DNA from: an uncultured Actinomycetes bacterium
Lineage (GTDB): Bacteria > Actinomycetota > Acidimicrobiia > Spongiisociales > DATADW01
Length of the DNA stretch: 20,000 nucleotides
Reading direction: 5' to 3'
NCBI GenBank assembly: GCA_963824995.1
Contig: CAWGRK010000006.1
Span: 498,860 to 518,859, forward strand
Shown: piece after piece, positions 7,398-19,989 of the stretch
Layout: every line of letters starts with the position of its first letter
Position numbering within the stretch: position 1 is the stretch's first letter
Made by a program: the position numbers and the translations under genes
The notes under the pieces: model-generated
The model's database searches: none
Told to the model about the DNA's origin: nothing
The model's input: only the letters and a program-made list of their open reading frames with translations

Positions 7398-7940
7398 TCA
7401 CGTCGTCTCCTTCAGATATCGGAGGATCCGGCTGTCACCTATGCGCCGATCATCGTCCAGTTCCAAGGATTGGGGGACGACCGGGAGATCCTCTCCCGCC
7501 CGGCGGTGGAGGATCACCACACTGTCTCGGCCCACCGTGCGGTCCACCAGACCGATGATCTGCTCTACCGAAGCTAGCGACAGGGCATAAGGCGGGTCAA
7601 CGAAGACCAGGTCGTAGCCCTTGGTGTTTCGTTCGAGGAATCGAACCACATCATCGACGGCGACCTCGCCACCGAGTTTGATCGCCGCAATATTCCGTCG
7701 AAGCACGCCGACAGCTTCACGGCCCCGCTCGACGAACGTGGCTGAGTCCGCTCCCCTGCTGAGCGCTTCCAATCCGAAGGCACCGGAGCCGGCATACAGA
7801 TCGAGGACACGGGCGCCCACCACCCGATCACCCAGCGAGGAGAAGATCGACTCCTTGGCCCGGTCGGTGATCGGCCTGGTGTCAGAGGTACGCGGCGCCT
7901 CGAGCCGCCTTCCCTTGGCGGACCCAGCGATGATCCTCAT
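7398..7940 (-). CDS. rsmD: 16S rRNA m2G966 methyltransferase
   Basis: MRIIAGSAKGRRL, TRPITDRAKESIF, LDLYAGSGAFGLEALSRGA, VFVDPPY. Start reassigned to 7940. Confidence 0.96.
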   Translation of the reverse strand: MRIIAGSAKGRRLEAPRTSDTRPITDRAKESIFSSLGDRVVGARVLDLYAGSGAFGLEALSRGADSATFVERGREAVGVLRRNIAAIKLGGEVAVDDVVRFLERNTKGYDLVFVDPPYALSLASVEQIIGLVDRTVGRDSVVILHRRAGEDLPVVPQSLELDDDRRIGDSRILRYLKETT

Positions 7941-7943
7941 GGG

Positions 7944-7978
7944 TAAGACGGAAGACGGAAGACGGAAGACGGAAGACG
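7944..7978 (+). repeat. Heptamer tandem array TAAGACG + (GAAGACG)x4
   Basis: Read directly; lies immediately upstream of the rsmD start. Confidence 0.95.
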
Positions 7979-7992
7979 GAAGTCTCCGCTCC

Positions 7993-8041
7993 GTCCCCGG
8001 AGGGGGGAAGGGCCCCGCTGCGCCAGCAGCGGGTAGGGGGG
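7993..8041. repeat. REP-like GC palindromic element
   Basis: CCCC-gga-GGGG mini-hairpin, perfect 8-bp stem CCCGCTGC-gcca-GCAGCGGG (8014-8033), then a G-run. Confidence 0.5.
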
Positions 8042-8060
8042 CTACCGGACCTTCCGCCGG

Positions 8061-8109
8061 GCGGACGGCGGACGGCAGACGGCGGACGGCGGACGGCAGA
8101 CGGCAGACG
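8061..8109 (+). repeat. Heptamer tandem array (GCRGACG)x7
   Basis: Four GCGGACG and three GCAGACG units abutting the recG stop. Confidence 0.95.
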
Positions 8110-8110
8110 C

Positions 8111-10327
8111 TCATGACCTGAACAGCCATTGGACGTCTTCGCCGAGGAAGGCGGTCACTTCGTCTTTGAGTTCGGGGTTGTGGTCGAGGGTGGGGTCGGC
8201 GCCGACCAGGCGGAAGGCCTCGCGCCGTGCCGTGACCAACAGGTCGGCGTCGCGCAGGATGTCGGCCAGGCGTAGATCGGGCAGTCCGGACTGGCGGGTG
8301 CCGAAGACGGTTCCCTGTCCGCGGATCCTCAGGTCCTCCTCAGCGAGGACGAAGCCGTCGGAACTGGCGATCATGGCGGCTACCCGTTGTTCGCCCTCCT
8401 CGGTGGTCGGCTCGGACATCAGAACACATGTGGAAGGGAACTTCGCCCGGCCGACTCTGCCGCGGAGTTGGTGGAGCTGGCTGAGACCGAACCGGTCGGC
8501 ATCCTCGATCACCATCACGGTGGCGTTGGGGATGTCGATCCCGACCTCGATAACGGTGGTGGCGACGAGCACGTCTACCTCGCCGTCCCTCATCGCCCCC
8601 ATCACCGATTCCTTCTCGACCGAAGGCATCTGCCCGTGGATCAGCCCCACCCGCAACCCGCTGAGCACCTCTTGCAGCCGCTTGTGCTCGGTGGTGGCCG
8701 ATGCGGCTTCGACCTTTGCGCTGTCCTCGACCAGAGGGCATACGACGAACGCTTGCCGTCCCTCGGTGACCTGTTCGCGGATGAGTTGCTCTACCCGAGC
8801 CCAATCCGTCGGGCCCTTTCCCAGATGAATCGTGGTCACCAGTGCCCTGCCGGGGGGCATGGCATCGAGCAACGTGACATCCAGGTCGCCGTAGAGGGTC
8901 ATCGCCAGCGTCCGCGGGATGGGGGTTGCGGTCATGATGAGCAGGTCGGGGTCAACGTCCCCGGCCTTCTCCTTGAGGTCCACCCGCTGATGGACACCGA
9001 AGCGGTGCTGCTCGTCAACCACGGCGACACCCAGACGGTGGAAGTGGACGCCCTCCTGGATGAGGGCGTGGGTCCCGATCACGAGGTCCACCTCGCCGGT
9101 CGCGATCATGTCGAGCAGTTCCTGCCGGCGTACCCCACCCCGGGGCCGGCTGGTCACCTCGGCGCTCGAACCGGTGAGCAGCGCCACCACCACCGGCCGG
9201 GCGGCGCCCTCGCCTGGGGGACCGGCGAAGAGCGAATCCATGCCCAGTCGACTTCCTTCGCCCTCGACCTCGGGGGTCATCCCGGCAAGGTCGAGCAAAC
9301 CCGTGATGCTGAGGAAGTGCTGCCCGGCGAGAACCTCGGTGGGGGCCATCACCGCACCCTGGTAGCCCCCCTCGACACCGGCGAGCAGGGCGGCGACCGC
9401 CACGACCGTCTTCCCCGATCCCACCTCGCCCTGAAGCAGGCGATGCATCGGGTCGGCCGAGGCGAGGTCGGCATCGATCTCCTCCAGCGCCCGTAACTGG
9501 GCCTCTGTCAGCCGAAAAGGAAGGTGTTCCACGAAGTGCGTTGCGAGTCCGCGCCCGGCGTCGTGGACGATTCCCTTGCTGGTGACGCGCCGGTGGCGCT
9601 GCTGCGCCGCCAGCGCCACTTCGAGCCGGAACAACTCGTCGAAGGCGAGCCGGCGCCGGCTCGCCGCCACCTCGTCGAGCGACTCGGGAAAGTGGATCCC
9701 GCCGAATGCGGCGTCCCGATCCATCAGCCCAAGCTCGGCGAGTATCACATCGGGGACCGGGTCCGAGACTGGCCGCGCCACTTTCAGGGCTTCGAATATG
9801 GCTCGCCGGAGGTGGCCGGCGCTCACCTCCTGGACCGACGGGTGGATGGGGACGATCCGCCCGGTGATCAGGCTCTCCTTGCCACCGAGCAGGTCCACGG
9901 CCGGGCTCTTCATCTGCGGGCTCCCCTGGAACCACTCGATCTTCCCCGAGAGCGCCACCTCGGCACCGGGCTGGAGCTGGCGCTCACGGAACTCCTGGTT
10001 GAACCAGGTCGCCTTCAGGCGTCCGGTGCCGTCGGTGATTACCGCGTCCACGATCACCAGGTTGCGGCGGGGACGCCGCTTCGACACCTTGACGACCTCG
10101 GCGAGGACGGTCACCTCGGTGTCGCGGGGAAGCTCGGCAATCCGGACGCTGCTGCTCCGGTCTATGTAGCGGCGCGGGACATGGAGGATCAGTTCTGCGA
10201 CGGTCTCGATACCTCCCTTGCGCAAAAGCGCGACGCGCTTGTCCGACACCGTCGGTACGCGGTCCACGGTGACCGTGGCGAGGTAGGCCAGAGACCTGCC
10301 TGGGCCGTCGAAGGGGGGGTCTGTCAT
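8111..10327 (-). CDS. recG: ATP-dependent DNA helicase RecG
   Basis: Wedge domain ([12 protein letters not shown]), [74 protein letters not shown]. Start at ATG 10327 with TACAGT -10 8 nt upstream. Confidence 0.97.
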
Positions 10328-16240: not shown

Positions 16241-17860
16241 TCAGCCGGCCTCGTCCTCCAGCAAGCTGGAGTACTGGTCGCGCACCACCTTCTTGTCGAA
16301 CTTGCCGGTGCTCGTCTTAGGGATCTGCTCGACGAGAAGGACCTTGTCGGGCAGCCACCACTTGGCCACACGCTCGGCGAGGAACCCGAGCAGATCTTCC
16401 TCTGCGGCCTCAACCCCCGGTTTGAGCACCGCCAACGCGACCGGCCGCTCCTGCCATCGCGGGTGCTTGAGCCCCACGACCGCCGCTTCGGCCACAGCGG
16501 GATGCCCCATGAGCGTGTTCTCCAACTCGACCGATGAGATCCACTCTCCGCCGGACTTGATCAGGTCCTTGGCCCTGTCGGTGATCTTGATGTAGCCGTC
16601 GGGCGTGATCTTGCAGACATCCCCGGTCCGCATCCAGCCGTCGGCGAAGGTCTGGGCGCTGCGAGGGTCGCGCAGGTATTCGGCGGCGACCCAAGGACCG
16701 CGGATCAGCAGCTCGCCGAACGCCTCACCGTCCTGGGGAAGCTCATCGCCCATCTCGTCGACGATCTTCACCTGGAGGCCAGGCAGCGGCCGCCCGGCAG
16801 TCTCCAGCCGGTCTAGTTGCTGCTCGAAGTCCCAGTCCTCCATCTCCGGTGTCAGGAGGGCGACGGAGGCGACCGGGTTGGTCTCGGTCATCCCCCAACC
16901 CTGGAGCACCCGGATGCCGCGGTTCTTCCAGTACCAGTCGATCATCGCCCGGGGTACCGCCGACCCGCCGCAGAGAAACCCCTGGATGCTCGACACGTCG
17001 GCCTCGGGGTGCTCGGCCAGGTACTGGGCGATCCCCAGCCATACCGTCGGCACACCGGCCGAGAAGGTGACCCGCTCCCCTTCGATCAGGTCGACGATCC
17101 CCTTGGGGGACAGATCGGGACCCGGGTAGGTGATCTTGGCCCCTGTCGTGGTGGCGCTGAAGGGGTATCCCCAGGCGGCGGCGTGGAACATGGGGACCAC
17201 CGGCAAGACATTGTCTTCGGTCCCGATGTGGAAGTTGGCCAGCCCGGAGATCGTGTGGAGATAGGTGGAGCGCTGCGTATAGGCGACACCCTTGGGGTTG
17301 CCGGTGGTGCCCGACGTGTAGCAGTACATCATCGGGCTCCGCTCATCGAGCGTCGGCCAAGCCCCGTGCGGCTCGATGTCTTCGATCAACTCCTCGTATG
17401 CGATGGCGCTGGGGAGAGCCGAGGCGTCGTCGCCCATGACGACGTAGTGCTCGACGGTCTCCAACTGGGGCGCGAGCGACTCGACGAGCGCGACAAGGTC
17501 GGGATCCACGAAGAGGACACGGTCGCCTGCATGGTTGATGATGTAGACGATCTGGTCGGCGAACAACCTGATGTTGATCGTGTGGCAGATCCTGCCCGTG
17601 TTGGCGGTGCTCCAGTAGAGCTCGTGATGACGCTGGTTGTTCCAGGCGAAAGTCCCGACCGGATCGCCGACATCCACCCCGAACCGCTCGCCCAACGCCG
17701 TCGCCAGCCTGCGCACCCTGTCGTCGGTCTCGCCGTATGTTGTGCGGCGGATGCTCCTGTCAGCCTCGACCGAGACGATCTCCTGCTCCGGGTAGAGCCG
17801 TACGGCTCTGTCGTAGAGGGTCGAGAGCAGCAGCGGGAAGTCGTCCATCATGTGCGGCAC
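16241..17860 (-). CDS. Long/medium-chain fatty acid--CoA ligase (AlkK/DmdB-like ANL enzyme)
   Basis: YTSGTTGNPKG, VPMFHAAAWG, QGWGMTET, WMRTGD, DRAKDLIKSGGEWISS, PKTSTGKFDK. GAGGGAG RBS before GTG 17860. Confidence 0.95.
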   Translation of the reverse strand: MPHMMDDFPLLLSTLYDRAVRLYPEQEIVSVEADRSIRRTTYGETDDRVRRLATALGERFGVDVGDPVGTFAWNNQRHHELYWSTANTGRICHTINIRLFADQIVYIINHAGDRVLFVDPDLVALVESLAPQLETVEHYVVMGDDASALPSAIAYEELIEDIEPHGAWPTLDERSPMMYCYTSGTTGNPKGVAYTQRSTYLHTISGLANFHIGTEDNVLPVVPMFHAAAWGYPFSATTTGAKITYPGPDLSPKGIVDLIEGERVTFSAGVPTVWLGIAQYLAEHPEADVSSIQGFLCGGSAVPRAMIDWYWKNRGIRVLQGWGMTETNPVASVALLTPEMEDWDFEQQLDRLETAGRPLPGLQVKIVDEMGDELPQDGEAFGELLIRGPWVAAEYLRDPRSAQTFADGWMRTGDVCKITPDGYIKITDRAKDLIKSGGEWISSVELENTLMGHPAVAEAAVVGLKHPRWQERPVALAVLKPGVEAAEEDLLGFLAERVAKWWLPDKVLLVEQIPKTSTGKFDKKVVRDQYSSLLEDEAG

Positions 17861-17911
17861 TCGTCTCTCCCTCGCCTCGAGTTGGTCGATGCTATTCCGC
17901 GGACGACGGCC

Positions 17912-18064
17912 AAACGCGGGAGAACCCCGAGTGAGCCTCGGCGCGAACGCCGCCACCCTCTCGGGGCTCCCGGTCCCGCCCGCCTCCGACCGGGCGAACC
18001 CGGCCATCTGGCTGGCGGTGCGGTCTTTCGACCGCTGTCGCCTCCGGGGTGAGCCTTTGGCGAC
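17912..18064 (-). ncRNA. Candidate structured RNA, copy B (family not recognised)
   Basis: Four hairpins: GUCGCC/GGCGAC; GCGGUC-GAAA-GACCGC; GGCCGGG-UUCG-CCCGGUC; GGGAGCCCCGAG...GGCG-UUCG-CGCC...CUCGGGGUUCUC. Homologous to copy A. Confidence 0.7.
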
Positions 18065-18071
18065 GGGGGGA

Positions 18072-18100
18072 AACATAGACCGAGCGGGGTGGCCTTACAG
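18072..18100 (-). promoter_or_regulatory. Putative sigma70-type promoter of RNA copy B
   Basis: CTGTAA-N17-TATGTT. The G that opens the first stem (18064) follows the -10 after 7 nt. Confidence 0.55.
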
Positions 18101-18127
18101 CCCGAACCCAGGGTGCCTTTTCGCGAC

Positions 18128-18638
18128 TCAACCAGGAATTTCGCGCCCCGGCGGGACCGGTAGCCCGTCCTCGAGGTAGCTCGGGGCGTCTCCGATCCCG
18201 ACGGCGAGCGCAGCCTTCATCCGCTTCATGAGATCGGGTTCGACCATCTCGAGTGCTTCCGAATGGCTGAGGAAGGCGTGACCCTTCAACTCGATTCGCG
18301 GCAACCGGATCCGGGCGATCTCGTCAGGCGTCAGCACGCCACCATCGAAGATCATCATCACCGCCTCGCTCCTGGTACCGGCCGCCGAGAGGTAGTCGAC
18401 GCAGAGCAGGCGGCCAGGTGAGCGGCGGAGCCCAACCTCTTCCTCGACCTCGCGTTCGAGGGCGCTGTCGCGGCGACTCATTCCGCCCGATCATCCCTCC
18501 TGGGATGCTCCATCCCCGCCGATATGTCGGGTCGACGACCAGCAGCCTGCCTTCGCCGTCGTGGAGCAGCGACCCGACCGCCATCCGCTTGCCGGGGAAT
18601 GGTCTGGCGACCCGCCTGACCAAATCGATCATGGCCAT
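18128..18638 (-). pseudogene. Nudix hydrolase with a 1-nt insertion at about 18468 (pseudogene or sequencing error)
   Basis: Removing one base gives PGGMIGRNESPRSALEREVEEEVGL, a perfect GX5EX7REUXEEXGU Nudix box, flanked by LLVVDPTYRRGWSIPGG and LLCVDY...MIFDGG. Confidence 0.88.
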
Positions 18639-18698
18639 ATGCCAGAGTTTTGCACCTGGAATGCACCGGAGGGGACGGCGCCAGCTGCACAGTGGCGC

Positions 18699-18758
18699 AA
18701 CAAATGAGAAGCCCCGAGGGAGCTCGCAGCCGAAGCTGCCAACCCTCTCGGGGCTCTC
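18699..18758 (-). terminator. Terminal hairpin plus U-rich tail of RNA copy A (probable intrinsic terminator)
   Basis: GAGAGCCCCGAG...CUCGGGGCUUCUC followed by AUUUGUU. Confidence 0.55.
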
Positions 18759-18857
18759 CGTCGGTCGTGACTCCGACCCGAAGGTCGTTCTTCCGACCGA
18801 TCTCCCGGCTGACCCTCTCAGGTCCTCCGGTTCCTCCGGGGGTTGCCCCCCAGCGGC
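18699..18857 (-). ncRNA. Candidate structured RNA, copy A (family not recognised)
   Basis: GGGGG-GCAA-CCCCC; CCGG..GACCU-GAGA-GGGUC..CCGG; UCGGUCG..CGACC-UUCG-GGUCG..CGACCGA; long terminal hairpin with GCAGC-UUCG-GCUGC. Preceded by a strong promoter and followed by a U tail. Confidence 0.78.
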
Positions 18858-18864
18858 AAGCGGA

Positions 18865-18893
18865 AATGTAGGGCACCCCAACGGCGGCGTCAA
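18865..18893 (-). promoter_or_regulatory. Near-consensus sigma70/SigA promoter of RNA copy A
   Basis: TTGACG-N17-TACATT on the minus strand; predicted +1 G at 18857. Confidence 0.8.
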
Positions 18894-19007
18894 CCTCCAG
18901 GCCATCTTTGGTTTCGCGACCTGTCACCTTTTTTCGCGTTCCGTCTTGATGGCCTGTTCGGACCGAGAATCCCAGGCGTGTCATTCCCATGTCGTAGAGT
19001 GCTCGAC

Positions 19008-19811
19008 ATGGGACTTGAGACACTCTCACCGAGCCGAGCGAGCGACTTCAAGGTCTGCCCGCAGCTCTTCAAGTTCCGCGCCATCGACCGGTTGCCCGAG
19101 CCCACCACGGTGTGGCAGGCACGGGGGACCACCGCCCACCTCGCCCTGCAGCGGCTCTACGATCTCCCTTCCGACGAGCGCAGTCCCGAGGCACTGTTCG
19201 ATCTCTTCCGGGCGGCGTGGACCGAGTTGCGCAACGAGGACGAGTTCGCCGGGCTGTTCGCATCGCTCGAGGATGAGCGTGCCTGGGGACTCGACAGCCT
19301 GACCGTCCTCGCCAACTACTTCGGGCTCGAGGACCCGAGTGCGCTCCAACCGCTCGATCGTGAGCTCGACATGCTCGAAGATCTCGACGGAATCACGATC
19401 CGGGGGATCCTCGACCGTATCGACGAGCTACCCGACGGCAGCCTGGTCATCACCGACTACAAGTCGGGCAAAGCACCGCCCGAGGCTTTCGCCCTCCCGG
19501 CCTTCTTCGCCATGAAGATCTACGCGGTCCTTATCAGGCGGCGCCTGGGCAAGACGCCCACCGAGCTTCGCCTGCTCTACCTATCCGGCCCCACTATGTA
19601 CCGGCTGATGATCGACGACCGCCAGCTGGACGCCATGGAAAGGCAGCTCAGGGCGCTCTGGCAGGCCATCTTCATCTGCGCCATTGACCGTGAGCAGTTC
19701 CCGCCCCGCCCGGGGCGGCTTTGCGACTGGTGCTCGTTCCGCTCGATGTGCCCGGCCTGGGAGGTCGTTGAGGTGGCGGATCCGGCCTTGCCGTTGGTGG
19801 TCAACGGGTAG
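19008..19811 (+). CDS. RecB-family PD-(D/E)XK nuclease with an Fe-S Cys motif (Rv2119-like / Cas4-like)
   Basis: LSPSRASDFKVCP, GTTAH, RGILDRID, ITDYKSG, IYA, CDWC..C. Probably leaderless (TAGAGT at 18995-19000, 7 nt before ATG). Confidence 0.92.
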   Translation: MGLETLSPSRASDFKVCPQLFKFRAIDRLPEPTTVWQARGTTAHLALQRLYDLPSDERSPEALFDLFRAAWTELRNEDEFAGLFASLEDERAWGLDSLTVLANYFGLEDPSALQPLDRELDMLEDLDGITIRGILDRIDELPDGSLVITDYKSGKAPPEAFALPAFFAMKIYAVLIRRRLGKTPTELRLLYLSGPTMYRLMIDDRQLDAMERQLRALWQAIFICAIDREQFPPRPGRLCDWCSFRSMCPAWEVVEVADPALPLVVNG

Positions 19812-19815
19812 GAGC

Positions 19816-19857
19816 GCGGACGGCGGACGGCGGACGGCGGACGGCGGACGGCGGACG
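19816..19857 (+). repeat. Heptamer tandem array (GCGGACG)x6
   Basis: Six perfect units starting 4 nt after the nuclease stop. Confidence 0.97.
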
Positions 19858-19872
19858 ATTCTCGGTCTCCCG

Positions 19873-19989
19873 GTTCTTGCGTGGTTGAGGTACCAGAACG
19901 GTCACTCAGCCACGCAAGAAATGGTGGACCGACAACCGCCACAGTTCTTGCGTGGTTGAGGTACCAGAACGGTCACCCAGTCACGCAAA
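19873..19989. repeat. Two direct copies of a ~48-bp palindromic unit, 71-bp period (REP/BIME-like)
   Basis: GTTCTTGCGTGGTTGAGGTACCAGAACGGTCACTCAGCCACGCAAGAA at 19873-19920; a degenerate copy starts at 19944; 23-nt spacer. Confidence 0.9.

Follow-up and report, generated by a model that had tools for sequence, protein, structure and literature searches.

A stretch of 20,000 nucleotides (nt) from an uncultured bacterium of the class Acidimicrobiia (contig CAWGRK010000006.1, positions 498,860 to 518,859; hereafter the window) carries a Nudix gene, and both of the minus-strand intergenic regions that flank this gene hold one structured element of ~150 nt each, here called copy A and copy B. We read the two elements as genes of small structured non-coding RNAs (ncRNAs), that is, as self-contained units of an undescribed family which is widespread in Acidimicrobiia and whose members would be bound by a protein at their last hairpin, hairpin 4. 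For this reading as a whole we give a probability of about 55%.

In the mechanism that we propose, each unit would open with a pair of CGCGAAA boxes, separated by about two turns of the helix, as a putative transcription factor site which may switch the promoter behind it. A strong sigma-70-type promoter comes next, from which transcription would start ~7 nt after the -10 element. The resulting RNA is predicted to fold into three fast-evolving hairpins with GNRA or UUCG tetraloops, followed by hairpin 4, at which transcription probably ends and which probably shields or labels the 3' end of the RNA. Hairpin 4 might in addition be the handle for a binding protein, rather than a site of antisense pairing. 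What leads us to protein binding is that the body of the RNA is almost fully paired and drifts in sequence, and that the sequence of hairpin 4 is kept, including a G:U pair and an A-C irregularity.

Two minus-strand elements with four hairpins each

Copy A extends over about 18704..18857 (minus strand, ~155 nt) and copy B over about 17917..18064 (minus strand, ~149 nt), with the start and the end of the RNAs being predicted positions. The initial annotation had described two minus-strand elements with the same four-hairpin layout at these places, and minimum free energy (MFE) folding bears this out. In copy A, hairpin 1 (18856-18833) is closed by a GCAA loop, a GNRA tetraloop that had not been listed before; it is followed by hairpin 2 (18830-18805) with a GAGA loop, hairpin 3 (18800-18761) with a UUCG loop and hairpin 4 (18758-18706) with a UUCG loop and a U-rich tail. 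Copy B repeats this order in its MFE fold, with hairpin 1 at 18064-18037, hairpin 2 at 18035-18020 (GAAA loop), hairpin 3 at 18018-17976 (UUCG loop) and hairpin 4 at 17975-17913 (GUUC loop). The earlier reading of the loops agrees with these folds.

The four hairpins reach -98.9 kcal/mol in copy A (z -7.3) and -98.3 kcal/mol in copy B (z -4.3), and none of 200 dinucleotide shuffles is as good in either case. Plus-strand transcripts of the same DNA fold more weakly, with z-scores of -4.3 (A) and -2.4 (B). The hairpin-4 covariance model R1 behaves in the same way, scoring 66.6 bits forward and 26.7 bits reverse for copy A and 61.1 and 18.6 bits for copy B; the full-length model R2 gives 109.6 bits for copy A and 78.6 bits for copy B. 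The argument of the initial annotation that the elements function as RNA of this strand is upheld, as the forward strand surpasses the reverse strand both in folding z and in model scores. In the whole window, the combination of hairpin-4 words and spacer is found exactly twice, compared with 0.00 expected from 200 shuffles, and the longest exact word that the two copies have in common is the 15-nt 5' arm of hairpin 4. A scan for terminator-like sites calls hairpin 4 of copy A (18725-18709) as the sole such site in 17600-19200, and does not call copy B.

Covariation between the two copies had also been proposed, and this holds in part. The apical stem of hairpin 4 differs on both sides, whereas hairpin 3 shows no true two-sided covariation: its changes are mostly one-sided, to G:U, together with a 3-bp insertion, and the GGUCG of its 3' strand is identical in both copies.

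Upstream of each element lie features which the initial annotation had described only in part. The promoter of copy A (18865..18893, minus strand) consists of TTGACG, a 17-nt spacer and TACATT, and is the only promoter-like call of the scan in 17600-19200. In the promoter region of copy B (18072..18100, minus strand), the -10 element TATGTT (18077-18072) is clear, but the proposed -35 element CTGTAA (18100-18095) is weak and the promoter is not called. Of the two promoters put forward earlier, the first stands and the second stands in its -10 half; the distance of the second from the boxes further upstream matches that of the family. These dual CGCGAAA boxes, at 18912..18938 for copy A and 18119..18145 for copy B (both minus strand, 20 nt start to start), are new to the description. 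The window contains exactly two dual boxes, one per element and exact in sequence, with 0.00 expected by chance, and those of copy B overlap the 3' end of the Nudix reading frame.

A conserved terminal hairpin and a drifting body

Relatives were collected by a scan of a species-representative genome collection for the shared hairpin-4 words, with 21 exact bases required. The scan returns at least 131 loci. The listed loci and the window together hold 142 distinct matches, which divide into 121 hairpins of the same kind (118 that passed an automatic filter and three re-added by eye) and 21 chance matches in coding regions of other phyla. Homologs, for which the initial annotation had suggested a search, are found in at least about 111 family loci, located on contigs of Acidimicrobiia-type metagenome-assembled genomes (MAGs) with the same hairpin. 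Among the matches listed, the record titles of the family loci mostly name Acidimicrobiia, Acidimicrobiaceae, Acidimicrobiales or Actinomycetota MAGs, and the closest relatives of the window, L062/63, L065/66, L125/126 and L127/128, share its arrangement of Nudix and ligase genes. A further 14 loci are titled 'uncultured Acidobacteriota' (L003, L018, L023, L026 with the overlapping L027, which is counted, L043, L046, L053, L071, L073, L080, L092, L095 and L131), and one, L076, is titled Kiloniellales. Units and synteny of these loci are nearly identical to those of the Acidimicrobiia-titled MAGs, and the odd titles probably reflect labelling or binning problems in the records. An origin from mobile elements was tried and dropped, with no blastn match among 72,556 plasmid records and 50,697 phage records.

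Throughout the family, hairpin 4 is a nearly invariant stem of ~23 bp with a U-rich tail. Conservation extends beyond the 21 bases forced by the scan: in the 43-nt hairpins (n=96), the G and the A that precede the stem are found in 87/96 and 77/96, the C and the U of a CU in the 3' arm in 96/96 and 95/96, and the tail reads UUUCUC and then GCGU. In a MAFFT alignment of 117 distinct copies with a 20-pair structure, 96.6% of the cells are paired, compared with only 36-64% for slid partners; seven pairs are changed on both sides, and the observed values are reached by none of 500 shuffles. Furthermore, model R1 recovers 40 additional copies in 35 loci that lie outside the search pattern, and their basal stems show changes from C:G to U:A, from G:C to A:U and from G:U to A:U. 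At the family sites R1 scores 48-86 bits on the forward strand and at most 37 bits on the reverse strand, the E-values of R1 and R2 being rough. One G:U pair (301:328 in the R2 alignment) is nearly invariant (142/144), and the neighbouring A faces C or U. The compensatory changes, the near-invariant G:U pair and the forward-strand model scores together argue that the structure of hairpin 4 is selected at the RNA level on the strand of the element.

The same data bear on the proposal that the copies are elements of the DNA, either repeats akin to repetitive extragenic palindromes (REPs) and miniature inverted-repeat transposable elements (MITEs) or a palindromic operator, with incidental hairpins. 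Hairpin 4 is indeed an imperfect palindrome, the upstream box nearly recurs in reverse complement in the tail behind it, exactly so in units of the L008 type, and direct repeats flank the Nudix gene. However, pairs are maintained through G:U, which amounts to a C-A mismatch on the other strand, and model scores and folding z are both asymmetric between the strands. The copies are also few per genome (counted in loci), always oriented with the promoter and mostly confined to one syntenic locus; both window copies have promoters, and the plasmid and phage records are blank. We consider a DNA-level explanation very improbable.

Upstream of hairpin 4, sequences diverge into 38 k-mer classes, and the architecture is nevertheless recognizable in the folds. 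Exactly four MFE hairpins are found in 60 of the 66 short units, whose loops (n=256) include 132 UUCG and 68 GNRA tetraloops. Mean folding z is -5.8 on the forward strand versus -3.4 on the reverse strand, with the forward strand better in 21/23 representatives. MAFFT and RNAalifold applied to 58 short units recover hairpin 4 and hairpin 1, the latter with many two-sided changes, and miss hairpins 2 and 3 because these cannot be aligned by sequence. The full-length model R2, which was built from 21 units outside class I and aligned 150 matches, gives 89.4% paired cells against 70.4% in shuffled alignments and 36-56% for slid partners, with two-sided changes in 49/58 pairs, figures that lean towards the structure since the alignment was fitted to it. 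With these results the covariation that had been anticipated among homologs is present: the four-hairpin structure is kept through compensatory changes.

Class I units carry an invariant C-rich hexaloop, CCCGCU, which is counted in 38 of the 62 distinct short units and is absent from copies A and B. A loop of this kind would suit antisense small RNAs (sRNAs) acting by base pairing, in which the variable body recognizes targets and the 3' hairpin is only a terminator and chaperone site. Several sRNA families likewise combine a variable 5' part with a conserved terminator-proximal module and occur as side-by-side paralogs. Against such a role stand the bodies themselves, in which nearly all bases are paired and 206/256 loops are closed tetraloops, leaving hardly any free seed, as well as the lack of the class I-type hexaloop in both window copies; we hold antisense pairing to be decidedly unlikely.

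In addition to the short units, the family comprises long forms with 5-15 hairpins, in which 382/440 loops are tetraloops. These long class II units share the dual-box promoter and the 3' hairpin of the short ones, around a body of ~330-700 nt with 7-15 tetraloop hairpins, and usually lie just upstream of a gene for a bPH_2 + SHOCT protein. Examples are found in L012 (2990-3470, minus strand) and as class II units in L003, L009, L013, L026, L044 and others. Such a long form would count as a large structured ncRNA by itself.

The diversity of the body also affects the view that the units are ligand-sensing riboswitches, with hairpins 1-3 or hairpin 4 as an aptamer that controls a terminator. 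Metabolic genes do follow the units (Nudix, AMP-forming ligase, F420H2-dependent reductase), and the conserved irregularities of hairpin 4, an A opposite C or U beside the invariant G:U pair, speak for this view as well. Yet hairpins 1-3 fall into the 38 k-mer classes with no shared core, the body varies from ~100 to ~700 nt, the units are only loosely associated with genes, which have promoters of their own, and no Rfam riboswitch matches. Hardly any weight is left for a riboswitch.

Promoters, gene order and the question of leaders

Across the family, the upstream region follows a fixed spacing: two boxes 20-21 nt apart, ~15 nt, CTTGACG, 17-18 nt and TACNTT, after which the RNA follows. Exact dual boxes number 115 in 97 family loci (352,530 nt), and for 106 of them a same-strand hairpin 4 follows at no more than 560 nt. 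Four of the other nine lie at the end of a locus; the remaining five lack a hairpin 4 within 560 nt, and arithmetic on the listed coordinates places it ~590-770 nt further on. The dispersed, promoterless repeat which the initial annotation had named as a possible objection is not seen in these counts. Distances from box to hairpin 4 are characteristic for each group, with ~153 nt in class I, 157 nt in the clade of copy A, 150-151 nt in the clade of copy B and 325-473 nt in class II, and range across the family from 95 to ~500 nt and beyond. These distances and the regular pairing indicate that boxes and hairpin 4 mark the start and the end of a unit, and that the middle is free to vary.

According to Pfam searches of the five longest non-overlapping open reading frames (ORFs) of 56 loci, most copies belong to a single syntenic locus, for which the PD-(D/E)XK nuclease serves as the anchor. 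This locus begins with a UvrD-type helicase, a Glu/Leu-type dehydrogenase (26/56) and the nuclease (at least 30/56), which is divergent from the units. Next come one to five RNA units separated by variable small genes (F420H2-dependent reductase, Nudix, MFS, DUF2306, methyltransferase, HNH), and then a long unit. At the end of the locus are a bPH_2 + SHOCT membrane protein of ~205 amino acids, an AMP-binding ligase (21/56) and an SDR gene. A second locus is present in a few genomes, in a TetR/MMPL context in L018 and L095 and next to SpoIIE in L071. With one main locus and an occasional second one, the units are few per genome and do not form a dispersed repeat.

The window corresponds to this recurrent locus without the bPH_2 gene. 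On the minus strand, it contains the AMP-binding acyl-CoA ligase gene (16241..17860, minus strand; Pfam AMP-binding and AMP-binding_C, GTG start) downstream of copy B, then copy B, the Nudix gene and copy A, with the PD-(D/E)XK nuclease gene divergent from copy A (19008..19811, plus strand; Pfam PDDEXK_1, 3.3e-36), its start at 19008 being predicted from the frame and the length of orthologs. The Nudix gene (18128..18638, minus strand) is frameshifted within its Nudix box into the ORFs 18638-18324 and 18481-18128, of which the first has the Pfam NUDIX match; aligned with the intact ORF of the relative L065, the two pieces match its residues 10-67 and 68-131. This split gene is either a pseudogene or the product of a sequencing error. 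The rest of the window is ordinary chromosome, with fpg, rnc, plsX, yceD, rsmD, recG, ddl, a Mur ligase and an enoyl-reductase-like SDR, and no tRNA or tmRNA was found in it.

Such an arrangement raises the question of whether the units are cis-acting 5' leaders or attenuators instead. In that case the genes behind them (Nudix and acyl-CoA ligase in the window, bPH_2/SHOCT in other loci) would actually be transcribed from the promoters of the units, with hairpin 4 acting as a conditional terminator and its 5' arm as an antiterminator site. Downstream genes are in fact common: bPH_2 accounts for 24 rows (23 genes) among the co-directional ORFs whose start lies no more than 300 nt past hairpin 4, and the long class II units consistently precede the pair of bPH_2/SHOCT and ligase. 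Protein-controlled antitermination also produces sequence-conserved 5' arms of terminators. Moreover, hairpin 2 of the copy A type repeats the word C(C/U)GAGAGG of the hairpin-4 5' arm and could compete for the 3' arm; this word occurs 20 times compared with 0.5 in shuffles, in 19/62 distinct short units. As a second hairpin-4 arm for the whole family it was rejected, however, since it is missing from class I (0/36) and from the clade of copy B (0/3). The idea that ACCCCGGAGG in hairpin 1 acts as an antiterminator by competing with the 5' arm of hairpin 4 was likewise dropped, being seen by eye in the two window copies only and not as a family-wide motif.

Three further observations disagree with leaders. 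Gene-free tandem arrays exist: L008 (1928-3700, minus strand) and L060 (2350-4111, plus strand) each contain four or five units in a row, and in L008 four of the five units are nearly identical, ~315 nt each, with boxes and promoter of their own and no room for a gene. Convergent genes lie directly behind hairpin 4 in three contexts: Pfam-confirmed genes of the opposite strand have their ends 19-114 nt away from it in L017, L018 and L071, which argues that the RNA ends there. Finally, the downstream genes tend to have their own -10 boxes. In 14 of the 23 bPH_2 genes (L005, L013, L016, L019, L021, L026, L029, L033, L041, L044, L053, L067, L075 and L080), a TANNNT word lies in the interval that separates hairpin 4 from the gene and ends 5-9 nt ahead of the start codon. 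TANNNT at this short distance from the start codon is a leaderless-type arrangement, common in Actinobacteria, and suggests that these genes have leaderless mRNAs; others have a TAGGCT-type word and a Shine-Dalgarno sequence. For the ligase, the clade of the window has a -10-like word, TAGCAT, between hairpin 4 and the GTG start, which is conserved in L062, L065 and L126.

As the neighbouring protein genes have promoters of their own, the RNAs are not obligatory leaders, and we conclude that the units are self-contained RNA genes with hairpin 4 as their probable terminator, from which read-through into the next gene is possible and not required. The initial annotation had left the choice between sibling sRNAs and leaders of the Nudix and ligase genes open; tandem arrays, convergent genes and the -10 boxes of the downstream genes favour the former, and the leader explanation appears unlikely.

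Several points weigh against small, protein-bound RNA genes, and they concern different parts of this reading. A majority of the co-directional ORFs starting within 300 nt after hairpin 4 (37/63) are Pfam-confirmed genes, as leaders would give. With a consensus of UUUCUC, the U-tail is weak, and it pairs with the GAGA that precedes the stem; the terminator scan called copy A only. The 21 bases of the scan are invariant by construction in the 121 pattern matches, so that their conservation is tested only by the 40 model-found copies. For the body, the alignment with MAFFT and RNAalifold recovered hairpins 1 and 4 only, and the R2 figures carry the lean noted above. Transcription start and RNA 3' end are placed by prediction, and protein binding at hairpin 4 is a guess from its conservation. 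Among the five longest ORFs of the 56 loci, Pfam reveals neither a candidate binding protein nor a recurrent regulator gene.

A more far-reaching version of the idea, which we consider unlikely, sees in these units a new modular class of ncRNA (up to ~750 nt and 7-15 hairpins) with its own circuit. One factor would read CGCGA(N)AAA upstream of the promoter and, inverted, in the tail, and hairpin 4 with its fixed G:U and A-C irregularity would act either as a conditional terminator or as the handle by which a dedicated RNA-binding protein attaches, making the whole a promoter-to-terminator cassette that has no described counterpart. The PD-(D/E)XK nuclease and the UvrD-type helicase that are conserved next to it hint, in this version, at a link to nucleic-acid stress. 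Just past the class II hairpin 4 of L012 (2975-2995, minus strand), there is a perfect palindrome, TTTCTCG-G-CGAGAAA, whose half-site resembles both the CGCGAAA box and the hairpin-4 tail. It is possibly an additional binding site of the same putative factor.

Some repeats in and around these loci are recorded here for completeness. In the arrays of L008 and L060, heptamer-like repeats of the GTACTTC / GGTACTG type are located upstream of the boxes. The window has tandem heptamer repeats of the GGACGGC / GGAAGAC type at 7932-8123 and at 19797-19871, the latter at the end of the PD-(D/E)XK nuclease gene. Behind them, a 45-nt direct repeat (19873-19917 and 19944-19988, plus strand; 96% identical, 71-nt period) holds in each copy the inverted repeat TTCTTGCGTGG ... 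CCACGCAAGAA, and could be another small structured element or an operator.

Comparison with known RNAs

The identity of the elements was examined against Rfam 15, which includes 6C, 6S, SRP, tmRNA, RNase P, riboswitches, MDR-NUDIX and raiA. At the gathering threshold there are no matches in the whole window or in 20 related loci, the outcome on which the novelty claimed in the initial annotation had been made to depend. At E<=10, positions 17700-19100 yield only snoRNA noise inside the Nudix gene, and at E<=5 the best matches in L012 reach 13-24 bits compared with gathering scores of 42-100, that is, noise. In the literature, we found no description of the motif or of ncRNAs in Acidimicrobiia. 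Taken together with the homologs, the compensatory changes and the promoter-linked copies, this supports the earlier proposal of an undescribed ncRNA family. As a working definition we propose an R1 match downstream of CGCGAAA-N11-16-CGCGAAA on the same strand, which applies to both copies of the window; with their boxes ending 157 nt (A) and 150-151 nt (B) before hairpin 4, they fall within the range of the short forms.

Few members of the Acidimicrobiia have been cultured, abundant as the class is in soils, sediments, waters and wastewater. The family would be the first lineage-specific structured RNA of this class, with more than 100 examples and strong covariation, and its conserved promoter motif would point to a putative regulator and its regulon. 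Its design is unusual in that a modular, freely evolving stack of tetraloop hairpins is placed between a dedicated promoter motif and a 3' hairpin that hardly varies. In practical terms, it is ready material for an Rfam entry and for a better annotation of MAGs, in which these regions are now blank or covered by spurious ORFs.

Among the RNAs of Actinobacteria, Ms1 and 6S RNA were compared with the family. Both are single long irregular hairpins with a central bubble, which bind RNA polymerase. This fold is not found here, as four separate MFE hairpins are formed in both copies and in 60/66 short units. Identity with Ms1 was rejected on synteny as well: Ms1 is reported to lie between the gene of a HAD-IB hydrolase or phosphoserine phosphatase and that of an oxidoreductase (PMC9130861), whereas the flanks in the window are PD-(D/E)XK nuclease, Nudix and AMP-binding ligase and those in the relatives ELFV dehydrogenase, PD-(D/E)XK, bPH_2/SHOCT and AMP-binding, unlike Ms1. 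Acidimicrobiia are not mentioned in that study, with 0 occurrences of 'Acidimicrobi' (PMC9130861). The family nevertheless shares with the Ms1/6S RNAs of Actinobacteria a low sequence conservation, the fact that it is best traced by synteny and its status as a candidate protein-binding RNA (PMC9130861; PMC4191392). What sets it apart are the rows of separate tetraloop hairpins and the several copies per locus.

Antiterminator leaders of the ANTAR and RAT types were also considered. ANTAR leaders consist of two small hairpins with hexanucleotide loops, and a RAT hairpin overlaps the 5' arm of a terminator. Neither arrangement is recognized; hexaloops are rare, and 206/256 loops of the short units are tetraloops. 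By inspection only, an alternative small CCCC-GAGA-GGG hairpin within the 5' arm of hairpin 4 is possible.

The raiA motif RNA of Actinomycetota and Bacillota offers another parallel, being reported as a conserved and highly structured orphan RNA with covariation and a recurrent gene neighbourhood which likewise occurs in Actinomycetota (PMC10861870). Unlike in raiA-type motifs, only the 3' hairpin and the promoter are conserved here, and the body is modular, with 3 to ~15 hairpins. Qrr, OmrA/B and LhrC are paralogous sRNAs that lie side by side and share a terminator-proximal module. The present family resembles them in its adjacent sibling genes, the same type of regulated promoter and the common 3' module, and departs from their exposed single-stranded seeds and dependence on Hfq in having bodies that are nearly fully paired. 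The TRIT motif of Mycobacterium tuberculosis, finally, is a sequence-conserved intrinsic terminator, and hairpin 4 is similar to it as a GC-rich, terminator-like hairpin with many copies and a sequence conserved beyond pairing. In contrast to TRIT, hairpin 4 does not serve protein genes in general as a terminator, as a dual-box promoter precedes almost every copy within ~770 nt on the same strand. Both elements of the window appear to belong to a new RNA family of a familiar general kind, the orphan structured small RNA.

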